From IMG/VR virus record IMGVR_UViG_2917886563_000005: 38,089 bases of DNA; one strand, 5' to 3'. Origin of the DNA: a virus (Duplodnaviria; Heunggongvirae; Uroviricota; Caudoviricetes). Below the pieces are notes generated by a model that saw nothing but the letters and a program-made list of their open reading frames with translations, had not been told where the DNA came from and made no database searches. The position numbers and the translations under genes were made by a program. Positions 1,041 to 33,074 of this stretch are shown piece by piece (the stretch's first letter is position 1; every line of letters begins with the position of its first letter).

Positions 1041-2786
1041 GTGGGGATTTTTTTACTAGGCCGCAAGTTCGAAGGATCAAGCTTACTTTTTGATAAGGGA
1101 CGCTTATTTTTACAGAACAGCGTTGATGGAAATGTCTTCCTTGTAGTTGAGAAAGGAGGAAATCGAGCGTTTCTTCATACTGGTGAAAAATTTATAGATT
1201 TTGTTAGAGTTGGGCACTTGTCACATTTGAAATGCTATCTCTCACGTGAGAGCGACAGACTTTTATACTGCGTTTCATCATTAGGTGATGCTATTGAGAA
1301 GACAGTAACAGCAAACAGAACAAAAGCAAGTGGCTGGGAAACATTTGATATGCTTCCTGCAAAAGACTTAAGCGAATCATCCCTTAATCAAATAGAAATG
1401 CTTAAGGAAATATATTTTAAAAATGATGATTTAACATCTGTTTTCAACAGAATTGTTAGATCAGATTTGATTGACAAAGGAAGAACGATTGAAAAGCTAA
1501 TTGAAATAATGAGCGTCGACGATAAGACATATATCTCTTATCATCTATCTAAAAACATCAGTGAATTAGCAACGCTTTCTGATATTTCAGATGATGCGCT
1601 ATTTAAAGCATTTGTTTCAAACCTAACCAACTACAGCAAAAAAATATCTGTTATAGATGAAAAACTTGATTTTTTATCTAAGCTTTCGAACCAAATTATT
1701 TCTAAAAACAGCTGGATTGAACTAATTCATAATTTAAGAAAAATATCTCCACCAAAACATAAATCATGCATTGTTGCAACATGCAAAAATGAAGGTGTTT
1801 ATCTTATTGAGTGGATAGCTTACCATCTAAGCATTGGGTTTGATGCAATATTTATATATTCTAATGGTAATGATGATGGTTCTGACGAACTACTTAATAA
1901 TCTTCATAATGAAGGAATCATATACTACATAAAAAACATTGTTGGAGATGGTGTTAGTGCACAAAACAAGGCTTATGCTCATGCACTAACAATTAACAAG
2001 GAGGTTCTAAATTATGAATGGAGTCTTTTCATTGATATAGATGAATTTTTTGTTTTAAACGAATACATGTTTTCTTCCATCACTGATTATCTAGACTGGC
2101 AAAACAAAAATGAAACTGACGCAATTGCTTTAAACTGGATGTTTAGCAAACCAGTGGAAAATAGCGACTGGATAAACAATCCAATAACTAAAAGATTGCC
2201 ATATATTAATAAAGAAGCAAGCGCTCATATCAAAACATTTTTTAAGCCTCACAAATTCTCAGGCTCAACCCCTCATTTCCCATTGTGCAATAGCAATTAT
2301 AAGTTCGCATATAGAGACTCTTCAGGTAACATTCATGAAAAGTCCATCACAAAAAATGATTTATCATTTTCTAACAAACCACAAAACTCACACGCTTACA
2401 TTATTCATTACTTCAATAGAAGTATAGCTGAGTTTATTTGGAAATACTCTAGAAACAGAGGTAATCACCCAAATACAAAAAGCGGAAATAACTTTACAGA
2501 ACACTTATTTCAGTTCCTTGGCTTCTTCACATCATCATTAGACTCACCACGGTTCGTGGAGAATGAATCAATTGCTAAAATGACTGACATCATTGATTCA
2601 AAAATTAGCGAAATAGTAGCAAGCGAATCAATACAAATTGCGTATGAGAATGTTAAGAACAGGACAAGAGAGCGTTACGAATTAATCGAACCTTTATTTT
2701 GGGAGTATTTAAAGGGAAACATCAACTCAGAAAAACATAAAGACTCAATTTCAGATTTTATATCTAGATTTAAAGAAAAAGCCTAA
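1041..2786 (+). CDS. Cargo gene: 581-aa protein with N-terminal ~240-aa region of unknown function and C-terminal GT-A-fold glycosyltransferase-like domain; candidate lysogenic-conversion glycosyltransferase
   Basis: Motifs CIVATCKNEGVYLIEWIAYHLSIGFDAIFIYSNGNDDGSDELL and DIDEF look like GT2/GT92-type nucleotide-sugar transferases; visibly AT-rich versus flanks; GTG start at 1041 with GAGGGG 6 nt upstream (start uncertain, internal ATGs exist). Confidence 0.65.
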   Translation: MGIFLLGRKFEGSSLLFDKGRLFLQNSVDGNVFLVVEKGGNRAFLHTGEKFIDFVRVGHLSHLKCYLSRESDRLLYCVSSLGDAIEKTVTANRTKASGWETFDMLPAKDLSESSLNQIEMLKEIYFKNDDLTSVFNRIVRSDLIDKGRTIEKLIEIMSVDDKTYISYHLSKNISELATLSDISDDALFKAFVSNLTNYSKKISVIDEKLDFLSKLSNQIISKNSWIELIHNLRKISPPKHKSCIVATCKNEGVYLIEWIAYHLSIGFDAIFIYSNGNDDGSDELLNNLHNEGIIYYIKNIVGDGVSAQNKAYAHALTINKEVLNYEWSLFIDIDEFFVLNEYMFSSITDYLDWQNKNETDAIALNWMFSKPVENSDWINNPITKRLPYINKEASAHIKTFFKPHKFSGSTPHFPLCNSNYKFAYRDSSGNIHEKSITKNDLSFSNKPQNSHAYIIHYFNRSIAEFIWKYSRNRGNHPNTKSGNNFTEHLFQFLGFFTSSLDSPRFVENESIAKMTDIIDSKISEIVASESIQIAYENVKNRTRERYELIEPLFWEYLKGNINSEKHKDSISDFISRFKEKA

Positions 2787-2796
2787 TCAATTTTCT

Positions 2797-2826
2797 GCGG
2801 AGGTAATCCACCTCCGCTATTTTATA
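2797..2826 (+). terminator. Intrinsic terminator after the glycosyltransferase-like gene, between convergent genes
   Basis: gcggaggt-aatcc-acctccgc (8-bp stem) followed by tattttataat. Confidence 0.5.
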
Positions 2827-2851
2827 ATACATTGTGTGATTTACAATATTT

Positions 2852-5116
2852 TCATTTCGATGAGTTAATTGCCTCAATGATACGCTTCAGGATTTCATTA
2901 TTTCTGCGTTGTAATGCAGCCTCAAGGACTAAGGCCTCTTCATAACGGATCCCATAACGTGAGCCTGCCGGAGTGACCAGAATATCTTCATATTCTGGAT
3001 CTGCCTCTTCTTCATACTCTTCTTCGACTTCTTGAAACTCTGTCTCGATGTACTCTTCTTCTACATCTTCAACTACAGGGACGCTCACGAATGGATTTTG
3101 CGCAAATGGTGAACCATCTTCATTAAGAACAGGTATCATTTCCATTTTTGGAGCCTGATACTCTTCATTCACTACTCGTTTAATCCGTGTTCCGTCTTCC
3201 AGTACCTCATCCTTTAATACCTGACGACTCTCAGTAACCATCACTTGTTTGCTTACAATTCGAGTTTTAGTAACCTGCACAGGAACTGTTGTTATGCGAG
3301 TTTTAGTAACCATTACACCTTCGTTTGTCTGAACCTTAGTATATTGATCATCCCACTCGTCAAAGCAAAAGAATCCAAATCGGTGCACATCAAGCCCATG
3401 ACGTTCAAACGCCTCCTTTGCACGTTGAGCTATTACGCCAAAATGCCAACGAGCTCCGTCTTCTCCTTTTTCTTCTGTTCTGTCAAGATACTGAAATTGA
3501 ACGAAGTCAACCTCTGACCATGCGTCAAGTATTGTATCAGTGATTTCAAGAGGTGCAGTTTTAGCTCGCTCATCTGAAGTAACGGTAAAGGCTGTTTGAG
3601 TGAATCCACCAGACCACACACGACCAGCAGTTCCGACCGTGCTATTACTGTTCTGTGAGTATGGTGTAATAGATGAGTCTACTCTTACAACCCCATCCCC
3701 CTTTGGAGATAGCCTCAAATCAATATCTGTATCGCTTCCAGCAACGCCAACAGCAGGAGCATTAGATGCTGTCTGTGAGCGCATGGCTAGATAATTGGCA
3801 GGAACTGTAGGCCCAGACTCTATGGAAAATATAGGTAACCCAGACGATAATCGTGTAAATACTACGCCATTATCACTAAATAACATTCTGGTTGATCTGG
3901 TTGCATCCTCCAAAACAGAGAGTATTTCAGAAGTTTTCTGATTTGAATTGTTGTACCAAGTCATTGAGTGTCTATTACCAAAAGCAATTGCCACACCTTG
4001 ACCTGTTGATTCTCCGTCGGTTCCTTTAAGGCTATTGCTGCCAAATACGATGCCCTTCAGAAAGCGTGCTGTTTTCCCAGCAGTTTTGTCGTTAGCTATT
4101 ATTCCAATTGCTGCCGATGCAGCATTCAACACTTCTCCAGCTTGGGTTAATTCACCACCTGAGCCTAACCATAATGCGTCAGTCTGACCGTTGGGGAACA
4201 TTGAATTAGGATACAGTTCACGCTCATTCCCCCTGTTTGCTATATCAAGTTCAAGACCGTGACTTGCTCCGATTGTTCCTGCATTTCTTACAGTTGAACC
4301 ATAAAGTGCCCATGCGCTAGACCTAACACCTGATGAATCATCGTTGTAAGCCATCCCGGCTACGGCAAGAGCAGCATTACCCGGTTCACCATCTCCAGTA
4401 TGAGCAGATCCAAAAATTCCTATCCCATCTGGTGGGGCAATCCCAACATTTCTACAGTGTCGCTCTAAATAGAAATAAATATTTCCCCCTAGCCCTGCCA
4501 TCCATGGCACTTGCCTTAACCAATACCCACCAATGAATGTAACATCCATTTCCATTTCCCACGATGTAAGTGGGTCTGAAACAATATCCTGACTTAACAA
4601 ATAAGTGCCAGCAGGAATATAAATTTTGCGCCTTGTCGCATTAGCCGCAAGAAACGCTTCAGTAGAATCAACAACCCCTGTTGGGTCAGCACCTCCGGCA
4701 AAACCACTCCAAGTAACAGGCTTTGCTAATCCTCCGACAAATCCAGCTCCACCAGGCCCCTCCAGTTCAGATCGCAGTTGATCGGGGTCATACTTCAGCA
4801 CATTAGGAAAATAGAACTGCTGCGCACCATATGCATCATATACAGCCATAGAATGGCCTTGCACAGTTACGAACTTGGCAATCTGTCCGTTATATACCGG
4901 GTAACCAGCAGCGTTAATGATGATTGGTTGCGAAACAGGAAAGTGAGAGCCGTCTTCGTTCTCCACATAAACCTGAATCTGGTTTTCAGGATTTACCGGG
5001 TCAGTGTCAATTTTACCGATATAAATTTTGCCATTGGCTACGGCTTTAAAAGAACGCGCCATAGTGAAGAGTTGCGAAGGCATACTCACTACAACATTAG
5101 CTGTAATGTCTGTCAT
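2852..5116 (-). CDS. Tailspike: P22 gp9-like N-terminal head-binding domain, different central receptor-binding domain, C-terminal S74-type intramolecular chaperone and Glu-rich tail
   Basis: N-terminus [11 protein letters not shown]...[11 protein letters not shown]...VLKYDPDQ matches recalled P22 gp9 residues 1-~110; C-terminal SDERAK...WHFGVIAQ is characteristic of the autocleaving chaperone domain. Confidence 0.85.
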
Positions 5117-7894: not shown

Positions 7895-9892
7895 CTATTC
7901 TGACAACGCATCAGACTTAACACCCTGCGTCATAGCGTTAATAGCCTTTTGTGCCTGCTTCATGGCTTTCTCAAACGCTGTTGATCCGCGTGGGGTATTT
8001 GCCATTCGTAGCATTGCATTTCTGAATGGCTCACTCTCATAGGCGCGAGCAAGAAGGCCGTAGCTTACTGCTGCGCCAGTTGTCGCCGGGTTCATTGCCG
8101 TCCCATATCCGATAATGAACGGGATGGTTTGCTGCCCTGTTGGTGTTGTTACTGCCGCTTTTGCAGCCTGCTGCGTGGATTGCAGGTAGTTTTTCAATCC
8201 CCTCAGGTAAGCAGCATCCTGCCCCTTAAATGTGATACCCGTTTGGTTTTGCAGGATGTTAAGCTGTCGAAGGAACTGGTCAGGGGATCCACCTGATTTC
8301 TCTATCGCCTTTCCAATGATGCCATTGCGCATTTGCGCTCTTCCAACGCGACCAACTGAGTTATACAGCGTCTTAATTTCCGATTTGTTCTTGCTGAATA
8401 GCATGTTATTCACAACTTCCGGCGTCAGGTCGCCTTTCATGAGAATATTCTTCAGCCTGGTATTCTTTAGTTTCGCCGCTTCGTCAGCGTAGACGGCATT
8501 GGCCTGCTGATATTTACGAAGAGTATCATTGCCAAGATTCTGACCAATGGCACCATTGATATCGTCGGTCATCGCCTTGTAAACGCGCTGTATGGCGGCA
8601 TCGGAACGGTTTGGTAACACTGGTCGCTCACCCTTCACGTCCATTCTGAACTGGCTGCGCAGATCGCTTAATTGCTTCAAATCCAGATTTACCGGACCAT
8701 CAGGACCAGCATTGCGAATAAGCTCATCACGATAGGATTGAAGTTTTGAAATCGTCTCGTTATCAGCGACCTTACCAAGCTTCTGCAGGTTAGATATCTC
8801 AGTATCAATCTGCTGAATTGCTCGCACAGGCTGAATGTTGACTCCCGCCATTGCATTCTGAACCTGTTCAAGTCGATTACCTGCAGCACGACGAATTCCT
8901 GATGTTTTCGCTTTAAGGCTTTCAATAACAACAGCTGGATCATACTCACCGAATTTATCAGCAAATCTCTGCACCAACTGGCTTCTCGCTTCCTGTTGCG
9001 TTGCTCTCATTCCGCTTGTGCCAGCCAGAGGGATATTTTCTGCTGTAGTCTGCGCCATTTTTCCGACGCGGGAAGTAGGTTGTAACAGGTCTGTGGTGTG
9101 CAGAGGCACTCCTTCACGCTCTGCAAACCTGATAGCCTGTTGCGCTTCTGGCGCTATCGCACCACGAACTCCACGATAAGCAGCACCTAATCCACGTCCG
9201 GCAGCGTTAATAGCTCCGCCAGCCAGAACGCCAACGCCTAAGTCGGTGGCTAGTGCTTCCGCATCATCTTTCACACTGTTTGCAGCAAGTGATCCAACTG
9301 CGTTTTCAGCGAGAAGGCGAGTTGCACCCTGAGCAATTCGACCAGCAAGTGTTGGTGCCTGTGTTGCCGCTCTCTCAACGCCGGCAGGAGTGAGGTAAGG
9401 CAATGCTTCAGCAAATACCCTGCCCTCTGTCGTTTGTGGAGTCAGCGCACCTTGCTGAAGGCCAAAGTCCTGCTCTAATCCATGCGTTGTTACTCGTGGC
9501 GCTGGTTGATATGTTCCATCGCCAATGCCGAGTTTACCGCCAGCCCATGCAGCCGCGCTTGTTACAGCATCGGCAACCGATGCAGGTATGTTTGCCACGT
9601 TCACGCCAGCCTGCACCAGTCCGCGACCAGTCTCTTTTACTGCTTCGCCAAGATCAGACATAAATCCACTTTGCTGTGGTTGTTGCTGTGCTACTGGTTG
9701 CTGTGTCTCCACTGGCTGCACAGATGGCAATGGATAGGCAGCATAGAAAGCTTGCTTAGCCTGCTCTGCATTTTCTCCGGCTTGCGGGGCCACGACTTCA
9801 TTGAAGTATTGCTCCTGAGCCTGCGCTTTTTGTTCTGGTGCTAACGCCTGATACTGTGGAGAGGCGATAACATCTTTCCATGCTTTAGCCAT
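7895..9892 (-). CDS. P22 gp16-like ejection (E) protein
   Basis: Position and size (665 aa) in the conserved P22 order 4-10-26-14-7-20-16; Ala/Gly/Gln-rich. Confidence 0.7.
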   Translation of the reverse strand: MAKAWKDVIASPQYQALAPEQKAQAQEQYFNEVVAPQAGENAEQAKQAFYAAYPLPSVQPVETQQPVAQQQPQQSGFMSDLGEAVKETGRGLVQAGVNVANIPASVADAVTSAAAWAGGKLGIGDGTYQPAPRVTTHGLEQDFGLQQGALTPQTTEGRVFAEALPYLTPAGVERAATQAPTLAGRIAQGATRLLAENAVGSLAANSVKDDAEALATDLGVGVLAGGAINAAGRGLGAAYRGVRGAIAPEAQQAIRFAEREGVPLHTTDLLQPTSRVGKMAQTTAENIPLAGTSGMRATQQEARSQLVQRFADKFGEYDPAVVIESLKAKTSGIRRAAGNRLEQVQNAMAGVNIQPVRAIQQIDTEISNLQKLGKVADNETISKLQSYRDELIRNAGPDGPVNLDLKQLSDLRSQFRMDVKGERPVLPNRSDAAIQRVYKAMTDDINGAIGQNLGNDTLRKYQQANAVYADEAAKLKNTRLKNILMKGDLTPEVVNNMLFSKNKSEIKTLYNSVGRVGRAQMRNGIIGKAIEKSGGSPDQFLRQLNILQNQTGITFKGQDAAYLRGLKNYLQSTQQAAKAAVTTPTGQQTIPFIIGYGTAMNPATTGAAVSYGLLARAYESEPFRNAMLRMANTPRGSTAFEKAMKQAQKAINAMTQGVKSDALSE

Positions 9893-26980: not shown

Positions 26981-27853
26981 TCATGCAGCTTCCCTCCCGA
27001 AGTCGAAATCAAGCTGCCCTCCAAATATTTCGCATGACTCAGAACAAGAGCCGGTATCGAATCTTTTAGCTCGTACCATGTCCTGATACAGGGCTTGATA
27101 ATCATTTTCTGAATACATTTTCGCGATACCGTCCAGCGACATTCTTCCTCGGTACATAATCTCCTTTGGCGTTTCCCGATGTCCGTCACGCACATGCGAT
27201 CCCGTGATGACCTCATTAAAAACACGCTGCAATCCCTCCTCATCTTTGCAGGCAAGTCCGATTTTTTGCGTTGATTTTTTAATGCAGAATATGCAGTTAC
27301 CGAGATGTTCCGGTATTTGCAAATCGAATGGTTGTTGCTTCCACCATGCGAGGATATCTTCCTTCTCAAAGTCTGACAGTTCAGCAAGATATCTGATTCC
27401 AGGCTTTGGCTTTAGCCGCTTCGGTTCATCAGCTCTGATGCCAATCCACGTGGTATAATTCCCTCGCCCGAAATGGTCATCACAGTATTTGGTGAAGGGA
27501 ACGAGTTTTAATCTGTCAGTGCAGAACGCGCCGCCGACGTATGGAGTGCCATATTTCTTTACCATATCGATAAATGGCTTCAGAACAGGCATTTTCGTCT
27601 GAATATCCTTTGGTTCCCATACCGTATAACCATTTGACTGTCCAGGCTCTGGGTTGATATCAACCTGCAATACAGTGAGCGGTATATCCCAGAACTTCAC
27701 AACTTCGCGGATAAACCGATATGTCATCGGGTGTTCACAACCTGTATCCATGAAAACGTAATGCACGTCTTCACCTGCCTGTCGCTTTTGCTCCATTAGC
27801 CAGAGCAAATATGCTGACGTCCTGCCACCGGAGAAACTAACGACATTTATCAT
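26981..27853 (-). CDS. ninC: NinC (PAPS-reductase-like family), 290 aa
   Basis: From [20 protein letters not shown]...; length equals lambda NinC. Confidence 0.8.
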
Positions 27854-28290
27854 GCAGCCTTGTCTCCCCATCTTGCTTTCCACTCCAGAGCCAGTCGCGC
27901 TTCGTCTGACCACTTAACGCCACGTTCTGTACCGAATGCCTGTATAAGCTCTAATAGCTCCGCAAATTCGCCTACCCGCATCCTGCTGGTTGACTGGCCT
28001 ATTACCACAAAGCCATTCCCGGCAAGGTTAGGAACAACGTCCTGCTGCTTTAAGGCTGCGGTAAACACACACTTCCAGCTTTCTGCATCCAGCCAGCGAC
28101 CATGCCATTCAACCTGACGCGAGACGTCACCTAAGCAGGCCCATAGCTTTCTGTTTTGGTCTAAGCTGCGGTTGCGTTCCTGAATGGTTACTACGATTGG
28201 CTTGGTTGGGTCTGGAAGGATTTGCTGTACTGCGTGAATAGCGTTTTGCTGATGTGCTGGAGATCGAATTTCAAAGGTTAGCTTTTTCAT
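27850..28290 (-). CDS. ninB: NinB/Orf recombination mediator, 146 aa
   Basis: From MKKLTFEIRSPAHQQNAIHAVQQILPDPTKPIVVTIQERNRSLDQNRKLWACLGD... matches recalled lambda NinB. Confidence 0.85.
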   Translation of the reverse strand: MKKLTFEIRSPAHQQNAIHAVQQILPDPTKPIVVTIQERNRSLDQNRKLWACLGDVSRQVEWHGRWLDAESWKCVFTAALKQQDVVPNLAGNGFVVIGQSTSRMRVGEFAELLELIQAFGTERGVKWSDEARLALEWKARWGDKAA

Positions 28291-28363
28291 GACTTCCCTC
28301 TCCCCCAAATAAAAAGGCCTGCGATTACCAGCAGGCCTGTTATTACCTCAGTGATGTAGATGG

Positions 28364-29740
28364 TCATACGTCAGCCCCTTGTGCATATCGTCTGCCACGC
28401 GCAGCAGGTGCATTTGATGCTGTGCAAATCTGTCTGGCTTCATCCTGGTCACATGCAACAAAGTGTCCGTTACAGAACCGCTGGTAAACCGTACCAAGCG
28501 AGCCAAAACGGTTTTTCGTCACGATGATTTCAGCAAATGGCGCGGCGCTACTGTTCTCGTCATATACCGCTTCCCGATAGAGCATGATGATTGAGTCTGC
28601 GTCCTGCTCAATGCTTCCTGAATCACGTAAATCTGCGTTTGTCGGGCGTTTGTTTGGTCGCTTCTCAACATCGCGCGAAAGCTGACTTAGGGAGATAACA
28701 GGCGTTTTCAGGTCTTTCGCCATCGCCTTCAGGCTTCCTGAGATGTGAGCAATTGCGAGGTCGTTGCGGTCTGCTTTCGGCTTCTCAATCAGGCCAAGAT
28801 AATCCGCCATGATGAGTGACAGGTTTGGATTTTCCTGTTTGTGCCGCTCTGCGATTGAGCGAATTTCTTCTACCGATAACCGCGAGGCATCGACTACCCA
28901 TACATCCAAATCTGCAAGCTGACTCATGCCGTTAGCAACGCGCGCCCAGCCTTCGTCATCCATCGATGCAGGATTTCGCAGTACGCTAACCGACATCCTC
29001 CCGGCGTTGGCAATGCTTCGCTCTGCAATCTGCAATGCGCTCATTTCCATTGAGAAAATCAATACCCCGCGCCGGACGTCAGAACCAGGAATAACGCGGC
29101 TTGCAACGCCTTCGGCAATCTTCAGCGCCAGTTCGGTTTTCCCCATACCAGGACGAGCAGCGATTATCACCAGGTCTTCCGCGTTCATCCCTCCGGTGAT
29201 GGCATCAAGTTCTTCGATTCCGGTCTTCAGGGTATCTGACTCTTCTCCGTTCCTCAGACGCCTGTCAAGCGTGTCAGTGTAGTCAGTGATGATTTCCCCT
29301 AACCGTACCGGTTTAACCTCGTCACGGGGCTTTCTGATGGCTGAAAGACGCTTTACAAGTTCATCCATCGCCTGACTCGATGCGTCGATGGTTCCGCTCT
29401 GAATTGGTTCACGCATTTCATCCATGATTTCCAGCACCAGACGGCGGTGATAGTTATCCGCGACCATTCCGGCATATCCCTTCAGGTTTGCGGCACTCGG
29501 GCAGTTTTTGCTGGTCATCAGGATTGACGTGAAATGCTCCTCTCCGCACGCCTCGGCAACCATCAGCGCGTCGATTAGGTTTCTGTTTCGCGCCTGCTTG
29601 CGGATAACCTCGAAGGCTTTCCGGTAGAGCGGAATTGAAAACGCTTCCGGCTCCAGCGTTGCCAGAACGTCGCTGGCGGTTGGAGTTAATCCACCAATCA
29701 GCAGGCCACCGATAACGCTCGCTTCGATATCCTGTCTCAT
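28364..29740 (-). CDS. Replicative DNA helicase (DnaB family; P22 gp12-like), 458 aa
   Basis: DnaB N-terminal domain and Walker A ([15 protein letters not shown]), plus RecA-like motifs. Confidence 0.85.
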
Positions 29741-30558
29741 GCAATCCCCCTGTCTGCAAACTTCCCTTCCCGAACTCCCGTTAACGAGTCTTCCCTCAGC
29801 AGGTAATCAAAATCGGCCGTCCAGCCCGTGTCGTTGTCTCCGAAGTAAAACGGCTTGGCCTGATGCACAAACGCCCTGACATACGCTCTGAAACCGTCCA
29901 CGTTTGGCGTTTTCAGTTGCGGGATGATTTTCTTCAGGCGGCGTTTGCGTTTCTCGTTGACCGCAACAGCGTGTGGAAGTCTGTCACCGACTTCGGTGTT
30001 GTAGGCGTTCAGGAAGGATTCGTAGTCGATTCGTTCTGCCTTGCGACGTTCAGGTTTAACCTGCCCATCGCCGCCCCCGTTAGGGGGTAAGGGGGTATTT
30101 GTATTTATTGTCTTTTGTATATTGTCTTTTGTGTTTAGCTGACTTGGCTTATACCCATTAGCCGACTCGGCTAATGTTTTATTAGCTGCTTTAGCTAATG
30201 TTAAGCTGTCCTGGCTAATCCACTGCGAAACCACCTTGTTTACTCCGATTTTCACGCCATCAGCAATGAGGAATTTACGCTCAATAAGCTGGCGCTTGGC
30301 AGCGCAAACATGAGTGTGATGAATACCTGTCATGGCTGCTATCTGCGTGTTTGTGAGTCGATCCATCGGCTTATTGAATCCGTATGTCTTGCGCATGATA
30401 GCGAGCATCACCTTCAACTGCCGGACGGTTAAATCAGCCATCAGCAGACTGTCGGTAATCTCGTTAGCAACGCGCATGAAACCATCTTCGGTATCTGCCA
30501 CGCGATGCTCCACGACCTCCAGTTGAGGCCTGTAATCAGCTAACTTAACGACGCCCAT
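29737..30558 (-). CDS. Replication initiator (O-like; P22 gp18-like), 273 aa, containing the origin
   Basis: O-type N-terminal DNA-binding domain; iterons and AT-rich tract inside the gene. Confidence 0.8.
30075..30221 (-). other. Replication origin: four ~19-bp iterons, an AT-rich tract and a G/C-rich inverted repeat
   Basis: Iteron-like repeats ttagctgacttggcttata / ttagccgactcggctaatg / ttagctgctttagctaatg / ttaagctgtcctggctaatc; AT-rich 30096..30135; cccccgttagggggtaaggggg. Confidence 0.65.
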
Positions 30559-30706
30559 GTTTCACTCCTGCTTTGGCTAGTCTGTAAACACCAACAAGGC
30601 GCTCTGCGAACGCCCTGTTATTTGCTGCGGCTACCACTAATCCCTCAGGTGAATCAGGGTGTCGAATCTCTTCTTTTTCCTGGTATTTCTTACGACGTTT
30701 TGTCAT
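30545..30706 (-). CDS. Small basic 53-aa protein between c1 and the O-like gene
   Basis: ATG at 30706 with AGGAG 5 nt upstream; overlaps the O-like start by 14 nt. Confidence 0.45.
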   Translation of the reverse strand: MTKRRKKYQEKEEIRHPDSPEGLVVAAANNRAFAERLVGVYRLAKAGVKHGRR

Positions 30707-30740
30707 AATTACTCCTGTGGATTGATCCAGTCTTTCTACA

Positions 30741-31019
30741 TCAGGCCTCAAAACTGTTGCAGCAGTCTTGAGGCTTTTCTTTTGTCAGCACCTTGGCTAC
30801 TTTCTTTGCCAGTTCCGCCAATTCCTCGTCTTCAACACCCCACTCCAGCACAGCCAGAAGCATGGCCATCTTTGGGATAAAGCTGTCTTTCCATCGCGAA
30901 ATTTGCGATTCATTAATCCCTAACGCGTCGGCAACCTTTCGCTGACCACGTACAGCAATTCGATTTAGGATGTTGCTTGTAATTGCATTCGCTTTCTTGC
31001 GAGTACTTGTAAGTTGCAT
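30741..31019 (-). CDS. c1: C1 protein (lambda CII homologue), 92 aa
   Basis: ...ESQISRWKDSFIPKMAMLLAVLEWGVEDEE... is the CII-family HTH and tetramerisation region; start MQLTST with AAGGA upstream. Confidence 0.8.
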   Translation of the reverse strand: MQLTSTRKKANAITSNILNRIAVRGQRKVADALGINESQISRWKDSFIPKMAMLLAVLEWGVEDEELAELAKKVAKVLTKEKPQDCCNSFEA

Positions 31020-31076
31020 ATGTAAGTATTTCCTTAACAAATAAGAAGTTATACGCACCAACTGATGCGCGTTGTA

Positions 31077-31121
31077 TTCCCGCATTTCGGCGGGAATGAG
31101 GACCATGACTGTTAAAGAGCA
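31077..31121 (-). promoter_or_regulatory. nutR: boxA (31110..31121) and boxB hairpin (31077..31096) between cro and c1
   Basis: Minus strand reads TGCTCTTTAACA then uucccgc-cgaaau-gcgggaa. Confidence 0.6.
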
Positions 31122-31127
31122 ATTTGC

Positions 31128-31313
31128 TTATGCCGCTTTGCGATAAGCACTTTCTTGATACTTCAGGGCGCCAGCTGTAACGACTTCCAGTCGATAGGCG
31201 TCTTTCTCTGGGATGACTTCCTTCCACTGAGAGACTGCTGCATCGCTAATGCCTAACGCTTTAGCTACCGCACGCTGGGTTCCGAAGTGGTCGATAACAT
31301 CTTTCTTGTACAT
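31128..31313 (-). CDS. cro: Cro repressor (P22-type), 61 aa
   Basis: MYKKDVIDHFGTQRAVAKALGISDAAVSQWKEVIPEKDAYRLEVVTAGALKYQ... matches recalled P22 Cro. Confidence 0.9.
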   Translation of the reverse strand: MYKKDVIDHFGTQRAVAKALGISDAAVSQWKEVIPEKDAYRLEVVTAGALKYQESAYRKAA

Positions 31314-31327
31314 AGACTCGCTCCGAA

Positions 31328-31393
31328 ATTAAAGAACACTTAAATTATCTATCAAAGGAATCTTAAGTCAAGTTTATTTAAGATGTCTTAACT
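31328..31393. promoter_or_regulatory. Right operator region: three 18-bp P22-type operators (31328..31345, 31351..31368, 31376..31393) overlapping divergent PR (-35 TTGACT at 31366..31371, minus strand) and PRM
   Basis: Each site fits nnnnAAGnnnnCTTnnnn; the third abuts the c2 start codon, consistent with a leaderless PRM transcript. Confidence 0.7.
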
Positions 31394-32044
31394 ATGAATA
31401 CACAACTGATGGGTGAGCGTATTCGCGCTCGCAGAAAAGAACTCAAAATTAGGCAGGCTGCCCTTGGCAAGATGGTTGGCGTGTCTAATGTTGCTATTTC
31501 CCAATGGGAGCGTTCTGAAACTGAGCCCAATGGCGAAAACCTATTGGCCTTAGCCAAGGCTTTGCAGTGCTCCCCTGATTACTTGTTGAAAGGAGAAGAT
31601 AGTCTTTCAAACATTGCCTATCACAGCAGGCATGATCCAAGAGGTTCGTATCCTCTAATTAGTTGGGTAAGCGCAGGATGTTGGATGGAAGCTGTAGAGC
31701 CATATCATAAGCGTGCAATAGATAACTGGTACGATACAACCGTAGATTGTTCAGAAGATTCGTTTTGGCTGGACGTAAAGGGTGATTCGATGACGGCTCC
31801 AGCCGGTCTCAGCATCCCCGAAGGAATGATAATACTCGTCGATCCTGAAGTAGAACCTCGTAACGGGAAGCTTGTAGTGGCAAAGCTCGAAGGAGAAAAC
31901 GAGGCAACTTTCAAGAAGTTAGTTATTGATGCAGGCAGAAAGTTTCTAAAACCACTTAACCCACAATATCCGATGATTGAGATCAACGGGAACTGCAAAA
32001 TCATCGGTGTAGTTGTCGATGCAAAAATAGCAAACCTTCCATAA
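31394..32044 (+). CDS. c2: C2 repressor (P22-type, LexA-like autocleaving), 216 aa
   Basis: MNTQLMGERIRARRKELKIRQAALGKMVGVSNVAISQWERSETEPNGENLLALAKALQCSPDYLL... matches recalled P22 C2. Confidence 0.9.
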   Translation: MNTQLMGERIRARRKELKIRQAALGKMVGVSNVAISQWERSETEPNGENLLALAKALQCSPDYLLKGEDSLSNIAYHSRHDPRGSYPLISWVSAGCWMEAVEPYHKRAIDNWYDTTVDCSEDSFWLDVKGDSMTAPAGLSIPEGMIILVDPEVEPRNGKLVVAKLEGENEATFKKLVIDAGRKFLKPLNPQYPMIEINGNCKIIGVVVDAKIANLP

Positions 32045-32756: not shown

Positions 32757-32940
32757 TAAAAATCAATGGTGTGGACAATTCAAGCGATGCAATGGATGCA
32801 AGCTGCAATCGGAATGCATGGTTAAGCCTGAAGAAATGTTTCCTGTAATGGAGGATGGGAAATATGTCGATAAATGGGCAATACGAACGACGGCAATGAT
32901 TGCCAGAGAACTTGGTAAACAGAATAACAAGGCTGCCTGA
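32740..32940 (+). CDS. ral: Ral restriction-alleviation protein, 66 aa
   Basis: MTTTIDKNQWCGQFKRCNGCKLQSECMVKPEEMFPVMEDGKYVDKW... matches recalled lambda Ral. Confidence 0.8.
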   Translation: MTTTIDKNQWCGQFKRCNGCKLQSECMVKPEEMFPVMEDGKYVDKWAIRTTAMIARELGKQNNKAA

Positions 32941-33074
32941 TGGTGGCCTTTATTTTTGGCATAAACAACAGAATAAACACTGCACTGTGTATTCATTCCA
33001 ACGAGTGCATACACGGAGCAATGTCGCTCGTAACTAAACAGGAGCCGACTTGTTCTGATTATTGGAAATCTTCT

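Follow-up and report, generated by a model that had tools for sequence, protein, structure and literature searches.

The window, by which we mean the whole stretch of 38,089 nucleotides analysed here, contains an O-like replication initiator gene whose middle part carries four dyad-symmetric repeats (iterons), an A+T-rich tract and a G/C-rich segment, one after the other in the direction of the gene (Table 1). In the surrounding region the repressor gene lies on the plus strand and is followed by cro, cII, a small ORF, the O-like gene and a helicase gene, all on the minus strand. This is the standard lambdoid layout of immunity and replication functions. The repeats thus lie downstream of cro and cII, as they would in a PR operon, and a PR-like promoter, itself a consensus match, falls between the divergent repressor gene and the P22-type cro. 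Matches to the promoter consensus in this region, the PR-like call included, are not more numerous than expected. As judged from its sequence, the PR-like promoter would be the source of both the O mRNA and transcription through the repeats. A terminator scan of the minus strand from 31400 to 29600 revealed no terminator-like site, and an Rfam scan of the whole window gave 0 matches, hence no support for a structured RNA at the origin. The small ORF between cII and the O-like gene has no Pfam match; its position corresponds to that of HK97 gp53, Nil2 ORF53 and P22 orf48. In P22, an oop promoter and terminator are found in the same interval between cII and O (BK000583).

The Pfam Phage_rep_O match (E 5.9e-33) covers residues 19-113 in the N-terminal part of the O-like protein, and we predict from this match that these residues form the origin-binding domain. 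The first iteron begins at codon 114, just past the match. The iterons, the A+T-rich tract and the C/G run together encode the inter-domain linker (approximately residues 114-162), such that the putative origin sits between the N- and C-terminal domains of a Phage_rep_O-family initiator. A sequence comparison of the O-like protein with the PDB found no relative among solved structures. Directly downstream on the same strand, the start of the helicase gene overlaps the stop codon of the O-like gene. Its product matches Pfam DnaB_C (9.5e-78) and the DnaB N-terminal domain (4.5e-13), and is approximately 90% identical to the helicases adjoining P22-type O genes. The module is therefore of the P22 type, with an initiator followed by a phage DnaB-family helicase and without a lambda-P-type loader. 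We presume that this helicase is the partner recruited to the opened origin. Elsewhere on the minus strand, in the nin region, positions 26981-27913 hold an ORF of 310 aa that contains a PAPS-reductase-like domain (E 5.7e-9), with NinB (27850-28308) just upstream of it.

Table 1 Features of the window, with positions in the whole stretch.
Feature	Position	Strand	Remarks
PEBP-family ORF, complete, 158 aa	1-477	+	Pfam PBP, E 3e-42
Family-2 glycosyltransferase gene, 581 aa	1041-2786	+	Glyco_tranf_2_4, E 7e-18
P22-type tailspike gene	2852-5116		Head_binding and S74 chaperone domain
DnaB-family replicative helicase gene, P22 gene 12 type	28364..29740	-	Pfam
O-like replication initiator gene, 273 aa	29737..30558	-	ORF list; holds the origin
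G/C-rich segment CCCCCTTACCCCCTAACGGGGG	30074..30095	-	Borders the A+T-rich tract; encodes PLPPNGG
A+T-rich tract CACAAAAGACAATATACAAAAGACAATAAATACAAATA	30096..30133	-	38 nt; 79% A+T, 66% A on the gene strand
Iteron 4 ATAAGCCAAGTCAGCTAAA	30152-30134	-	Abuts the A+T-rich tract; frame 1
Iteron 3 ATTAGCCGAGTCGGCTAAT	30175-30157	-	18/19 self-complementary, best copy; frame 2
Iteron 2 ATTAGCTAAAGCAGCTAAT	30199-30181	-	14/19 self-complementary; frame 2
Iteron 1 ATTAGCCAGGACAGCTTAA	30219-30201	-	8/19 self-complementary; frame 0
Small ORF between cII and O	30545-30751	-	ORF; overlaps the start of O
cII homologue	31106..30741	-	Pfam
P22-type cro	31313..31128	-	ORF list and Pfam
PR-like promoter TTGACT-16-GATAAT	31344..31371	-	Consensus scan only
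Divergent S24/HTH repressor gene	31394..32044	+	ORF list and Pfam

The iterons are four 19-bp copies of a dyad-symmetric sequence with the consensus ATTAGCC-N5-GGCTAAT on the gene strand. Any two of them are identical at 13-15 of the 19 positions, and their starts lie 20, 24 and 23 bp apart, so that the arrangement seen in lambdoid origins, with at least four dyad iterons of ~19 bp about two helical turns apart, is present here. The right arm of iteron 1 is degenerate, and this copy may for that reason be bound weakly. A search of both strands of the 38 kb with the pattern ATTAGCCNAGNCRGCTAAT, allowing up to 3 mismatches, gives 5 matches compared to 0.10 expected by chance. All 5 are located at the origin, and none of 100 shuffles reaches this number. 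The same search revealed no second iteron cluster in the window. The original prediction had described four related repeats of ~19 bp inside the initiator gene, and these results bear it out; its coordinates for the parts of the origin are correct within 1-2 bases. Formal repeat finding, which had been set beforehand as a check, recovers the iteron family independently, together with a perfect 10+10 palindrome formed by iteron 3. Tandem Repeats Finder lists only short-period arrays in the A+T-rich and G/C-rich tracts and does not list the iterons, because they are spaced and imperfect copies.

Read along the gene, the A+T-rich tract begins directly behind iteron 4. In a G+C profile of 29500-30800, a stretch that includes the whole O gene, the tract marks the minimum, and when all 38-mers of the window are ranked by stability it falls in the lowest 0.4%. 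The start of the tract and the terminal A of iteron 4 before it form a ACACAAAAGA box, which is common to nearly all relatives examined, lambda included; three of them have CCACAAAAGA instead. The tract is presumed to be the DNA-unwinding element.

The G/C-rich segment on the other side of the tract contains a C5TTAC5 run (30095-30083) and an inverted repeat with the arms CCCCC (30087-30083) and GGGGG (30078-30074), i.e. 5+5 bp with a 4-nt loop. We compared the folding of the inverted repeat with shuffled sequences for the window and ten relatives. In the window its folding has a z of +0.90, and 164 of 200 dinucleotide-preserving shuffles fold at least as well. The relatives carry some inverted repeat past the A+T-rich tract, and it is conspicuous in P22 (z -2.2) and lambda (z -3.2) only. 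In the window the repeat coincides with Pro and Gly codons (PLPPNGGG), and it may simply reflect them. Thus the G/C-rich inverted repeat proposed originally does exist, but its folding is not above chance, and we dropped it as evidence for an origin since it is not distinguishable from a composition effect. The G/C-rich segment itself is conserved in P22 and HK97-type origins. In two related loci (L066 and L081) an unrelated sequence with the inverted repeat GTCATC-TGGC-GATGAC stands where the window has the C5..G5 segment, and two others (L057 and L068) have CTTACC..GGTAAG. Inverted repeats of some kind recur 3' of the A+T-rich tract in these four loci with differing sequences, none of them individually significant.

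Two known origins with which this arrangement can be compared are those of lambda and P22. In lambda, four iterons and an A+T-rich tract lie in the middle of gene O; each iteron is an inverted repeat to which O binds as a dimer, and this binding bends the DNA and opens a 40-bp A+T-rich region when the DNA is supercoiled, and the origin, which lies inside the PR operon, is activated by transcription (PMC5043065, PMC7466680). P22 gene 18 contains four different repeats of ~20 bp, and the gene 12 product is a DnaB-type helicase (PMC8022706). In an alignment of the DNA of the window, HK97, P22 and lambda, all four repeats fall in one register and the A+T-rich tracts are aligned. The comparison of the iterons with those of lambda and P22 had been decided on beforehand, and the repeats are in register with both. 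The annotated lambda iterons span 39034-39118 and start at 39034, 39054, 39078 and 39101, and their spacing of 20/24/23 is that of the window. The two origins also share the number of copies (four), the dyad symmetry of 18-19 bp iterons, an A+T-rich tract (40 bp in lambda) that starts with ACACAAAAGAC and lies on the same side of the repeats, and a location downstream of PR-cro-cII, within the stretch of a Phage_rep_O gene that encodes the linker. The lambda-like order relative to gene direction that had been noticed initially is thereby upheld, as is the adjacent A+T-rich tract, which aligns with the tracts of both lambda and P22. The differences lie in sequence and partner. The lambda iterons read ATCCCTC..GAGGGAT with central A-tracts, and the lambda palindrome to the right of the A+T-rich tract is unrelated to that of the window (z -3.2 compared to +0.9). 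Lambda O is 29% identical to the window O protein overall and only ~19% identical in the C-terminal domain. The partner in lambda is P, a loader of host DnaB, whereas in the window it is a phage-encoded DnaB-type helicase.

For P22, the TPA record (BK000583) has a rep_origin annotated at 32840-32984, at the equivalent site inside gene 18, and the position in the gene, the number of repeats, their register and the type of helicase partner (gene 12) are the same as in the window. The A+T-rich tract and the C5TTAC5...G5 segment are near-identical, with 89.5% identity over window positions 30050-30142. However, the P22 iterons read TTTACC..GGTAAA, compared to TTAGCC..GGCTAA in the window, and although gp18 is 49% identical to the window O protein as a whole, the origin-binding domain is only ~39-42% identical. 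For this reason the specificities of the two initiators, as judged from sequence, are presumably different and not interchangeable. The window does not have the iteron specificity and gp18 origin-binding domain of P22; it carries the HK97 allele. The HK97 O protein (gp54) is 99% identical to that of the window, and the origin segment is 97-99.5% identical in HK97 gene O, ST104 gene 18, Nil2 o, mEp213, HK446 and the Stx phages 1717/2851, among others, with a near-identical copy in SPN9CC. These HK97-type copies have the same four iterons, A+T-rich tract, G/C run and downstream DnaB-type helicase gene, and deviate from the window by point differences only. Iteron 3 reads CCGAGTCGG in the window and CCAAGTCGG in HK97, the window copy being more palindromic, and in iteron 2 AAAGCAG in the window corresponds to AAAACAG in HK97. 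The origin segment is also present in 444 of 5426 complete E. coli genomes (~8%).

A plasmid-type iteron origin was considered and ruled out. Such origins have direct-repeat iterons bound by monomeric Rep, and DnaA boxes in the origin. In the window, unlike the plasmid iteron origins of P1, F, R6K, RK2 and pSC101, the origin lies inside the coding sequence of the initiator, and the inverted symmetry within each iteron implies binding by a dimer. There are no DnaA boxes near the origin, as the only two matches in the window are found at 8406 and 18799.

The element is very probably the theta-replication origin of a P22-like lambdoid prophage, placed inside the linker-coding middle of its own initiator gene. 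In terms of identity it is the known lambdoid origin, of the HK97 iteron type, paired with a P22-type DnaB helicase gene; its function is assigned by homology. An origin of this kind is textbook knowledge, and near-identical sequences are already in the databases many times. By analogy with the characterized origins, we infer how it would bind its initiator, unwind and recruit the helicase, and any role of the G/C inverted repeat would likewise be assigned by analogy. Transcription from PR would, as in lambda, lead to synthesis of the O-like protein. Dimers of its N-terminal domain would bind the four dyad iterons and wrap or bend them into an O-some. On supercoiled DNA, the O-some would open the adjacent 38-bp A-rich tract, to which the C-terminal domain would bring the phage's own DnaB-type helicase, encoded downstream in the manner of P22 gene 12. 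Bidirectional replication would follow. The helicase step is where the proposed scheme deviates from that of lambda, in which P hijacks host DnaB.

The origin might also be descended from a functional one and be inert in this copy, either because the prophage is defective or because initiation takes place elsewhere. A possible stretch of host DNA at one end of the window would fit this reading. The PEBP-family ORF at the start of the window has the look of host chromosomal DNA or prophage cargo, not of a phage core gene, and since it may be host DNA, the window could be an integrated prophage with a little flanking DNA, as this gene suggests. Apart from the immunity and replication region, the window matches P22-like podoviruses of E. 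coli such as IME10, APC_JM3.2 and HZ41. Against an inert copy, the O and helicase ORFs are both intact and hardly differ from their counterparts in plaque-forming phages, and proteins 100% identical over all 273 residues are found on several independent viral contigs. The high identity of the origin to those of HK97, mEp213 and HK446, which form plaques, and the lack of a second iteron cluster in the window point in the same direction. We therefore regard an inert origin as improbable.

Another way to account for the repeats is that they are a mere by-product of a repetitive peptide linker (LAKAAN / LAESAN) and have no cis-acting role in the DNA. In iterons 2 and 3, which are read in one frame, the encoded peptides TLAKAAN and TLAESAN are similar, and the region is a low-complexity linker between domains, as such a reading would have it. 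However, the iterons start at ORF offsets 339, 359, 383 and 406, so that the four copies are read in three different frames (0, 2, 2 and 1), and a peptide repeat does not need the internal dyad symmetry that each copy has. The repeat type moreover co-varies with the DNA-binding domain, as described below. Synonymous sites were compared in seven relatives that keep the iteron type of the window and whose N-terminal domain is ~54-62% identical to it. In these, the third codon positions in the iteron arms are 84% conserved, compared to 43% in the N-terminal domain and 51% in the C-terminal domain, and the central 5 nt of each iteron are 63% conserved; the figures are descriptive and come with no formal test, as the seven sequences are related to one another. 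Since the copies occupy three codon frames and their synonymous sites are far better conserved than those in the rest of the gene, what is selected in the iterons is the DNA sequence, and they are a DNA element instead of a repetitive peptide. A peptide by-product is largely ruled out by these two results, and we give it hardly any credence.

It is just as implausible that the palindrome of iteron 3 and a T-run form an antisense intrinsic terminator on the plus strand, or that the palindromes are operators of another dimeric regulator: the scan does report a site at 30156-30176 (+) with a 9-bp stem and the tail TTTTATTAGC, but this is 1 terminator-like site compared to 2.0 expected by chance in the region, the window has no Rfam match, and neither role explains the four copies at lambda spacing, the A+T-rich tract or the covariation with the N-terminal domain of O, so that the terminator was rejected.

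To place the origin among its relatives, we used a scan of IMG/VR viral contigs, in which 80 loci gave 55 full-length O proteins that differ from one another; the window and lambda bring the set to 57. These 57 O genes fall into six iteron classes: TTAGCC..GGCTAA, the class of the window; TTAGCG..TGCTAA, usually with four copies; TTTACC..GGTAAA, the P22 class; GTTACC..GGGAAC, with a spacing of 20/24/24 in a half-site search; TGTCACC..GGTGACA; and ATCCCTC..GAGGGAT, the class of lambda. The 20/24/23 spacing is recovered in three of the six classes by the half-site search, which does not cleanly resolve the P22-type and TTAGCG..TGCTAA classes. For pairs of the same class the identity of the N-domain is at least 57%, with a median of 95%, compared to a median of 46% and a maximum of 78% for pairs of different classes. 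In the C-domain, pairs of different classes can be up to 100% identical. Among the 57 O genes, the iteron class thus goes with the N-terminal domain and varies independently of the C-terminal one. The initial suggestion that the iteron sequence sets the specificity of the initiator finds indirect support in this covariation, a pattern in sequences by which such a role would be predicted. We also asked whether the C-terminal domain of O and the helicase covary tightly. The pattern is not clean and we claim no such covariation; in P22-type loci the helicase is ~90% identical to that of the window, and the O C-domain only ~60%.

One of the O genes in the set (L045, 804-1634) displays the exchange within a single gene. 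It is 100% identical to the window O gene at nt 1-60 and again from nt ~420 to the end, but only 36-70% identical between nt 60 and ~420, where it carries P22-type iterons. The downstream joint coincides with the boundary between iteron 4 and the A+T-rich tract. The best explanation is that a single specificity cassette, made up of the iterons and the N-terminal domain, is exchanged independently of the part comprising the C-terminal domain and the helicase. Mosaicism within lambdoid O genes is a recognised theme, and the mosaic pattern is directly observed here. As a tentative proposal for the specific joints, nt ~60-420 of the O gene, with the origin-binding domain and the iterons, may be a discrete, horizontally exchanged cassette bounded by the LEVVEHRVA-coding stretch and the ACACAAAAGA box. 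The A+T-rich tract might then be a recombination joint as well as the unwinding element, with new initiator/iteron pairs plugged onto any helicase module. Both the LEVVEHRVA-coding stretch and the box are conserved across at least six iteron classes.

The main value of these results is in annotation, since the origin of a very common module is unmarked in the records of HK97, Nil2, ST104, 2851 and SPN9CC, the five that we inspected for a rep_origin feature. We found no explicit description of HK97-type iterons in the open-access literature and no experimental test of the HK97/Nil2/ST104 iteron allele. Besides HK97, many Salmonella P22-like phages and several Shiga-toxin phages have the module, as do the E. 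coli genomes counted above. Once the iteron type is known, it can be predicted which prophages in a shared host could compete for each other's initiators or cross-activate them, and the origin fragment is thereby defined for lambda-dv-like vectors or origin-titration work. The origin opens no new biological question.

Some O genes in the set deviate in length. Two of them (L077 and L079; O genes at 2501-3391, 296 aa) have approximately seven TTAGCG..TGCTAA iterons when counted by eye and five in the half-site search. The expansion is like that in the Stx phages 933W and P27, which have six iterons. The O protein of L040 (297 aa) was considered as a similar case and set aside, as its extra 24 residues are not extra iterons and its origin is a standard one with four.

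At the other end of the window, the most A+T-rich DNA is located at 970-2820, with 40-nt windows down to 12.5% G+C around 973. This DNA flanks and fills the glycosyltransferase gene, which adjoins the tailspike gene. The glycosyltransferase gene is probably a foreign, serotype-converting cargo gene.
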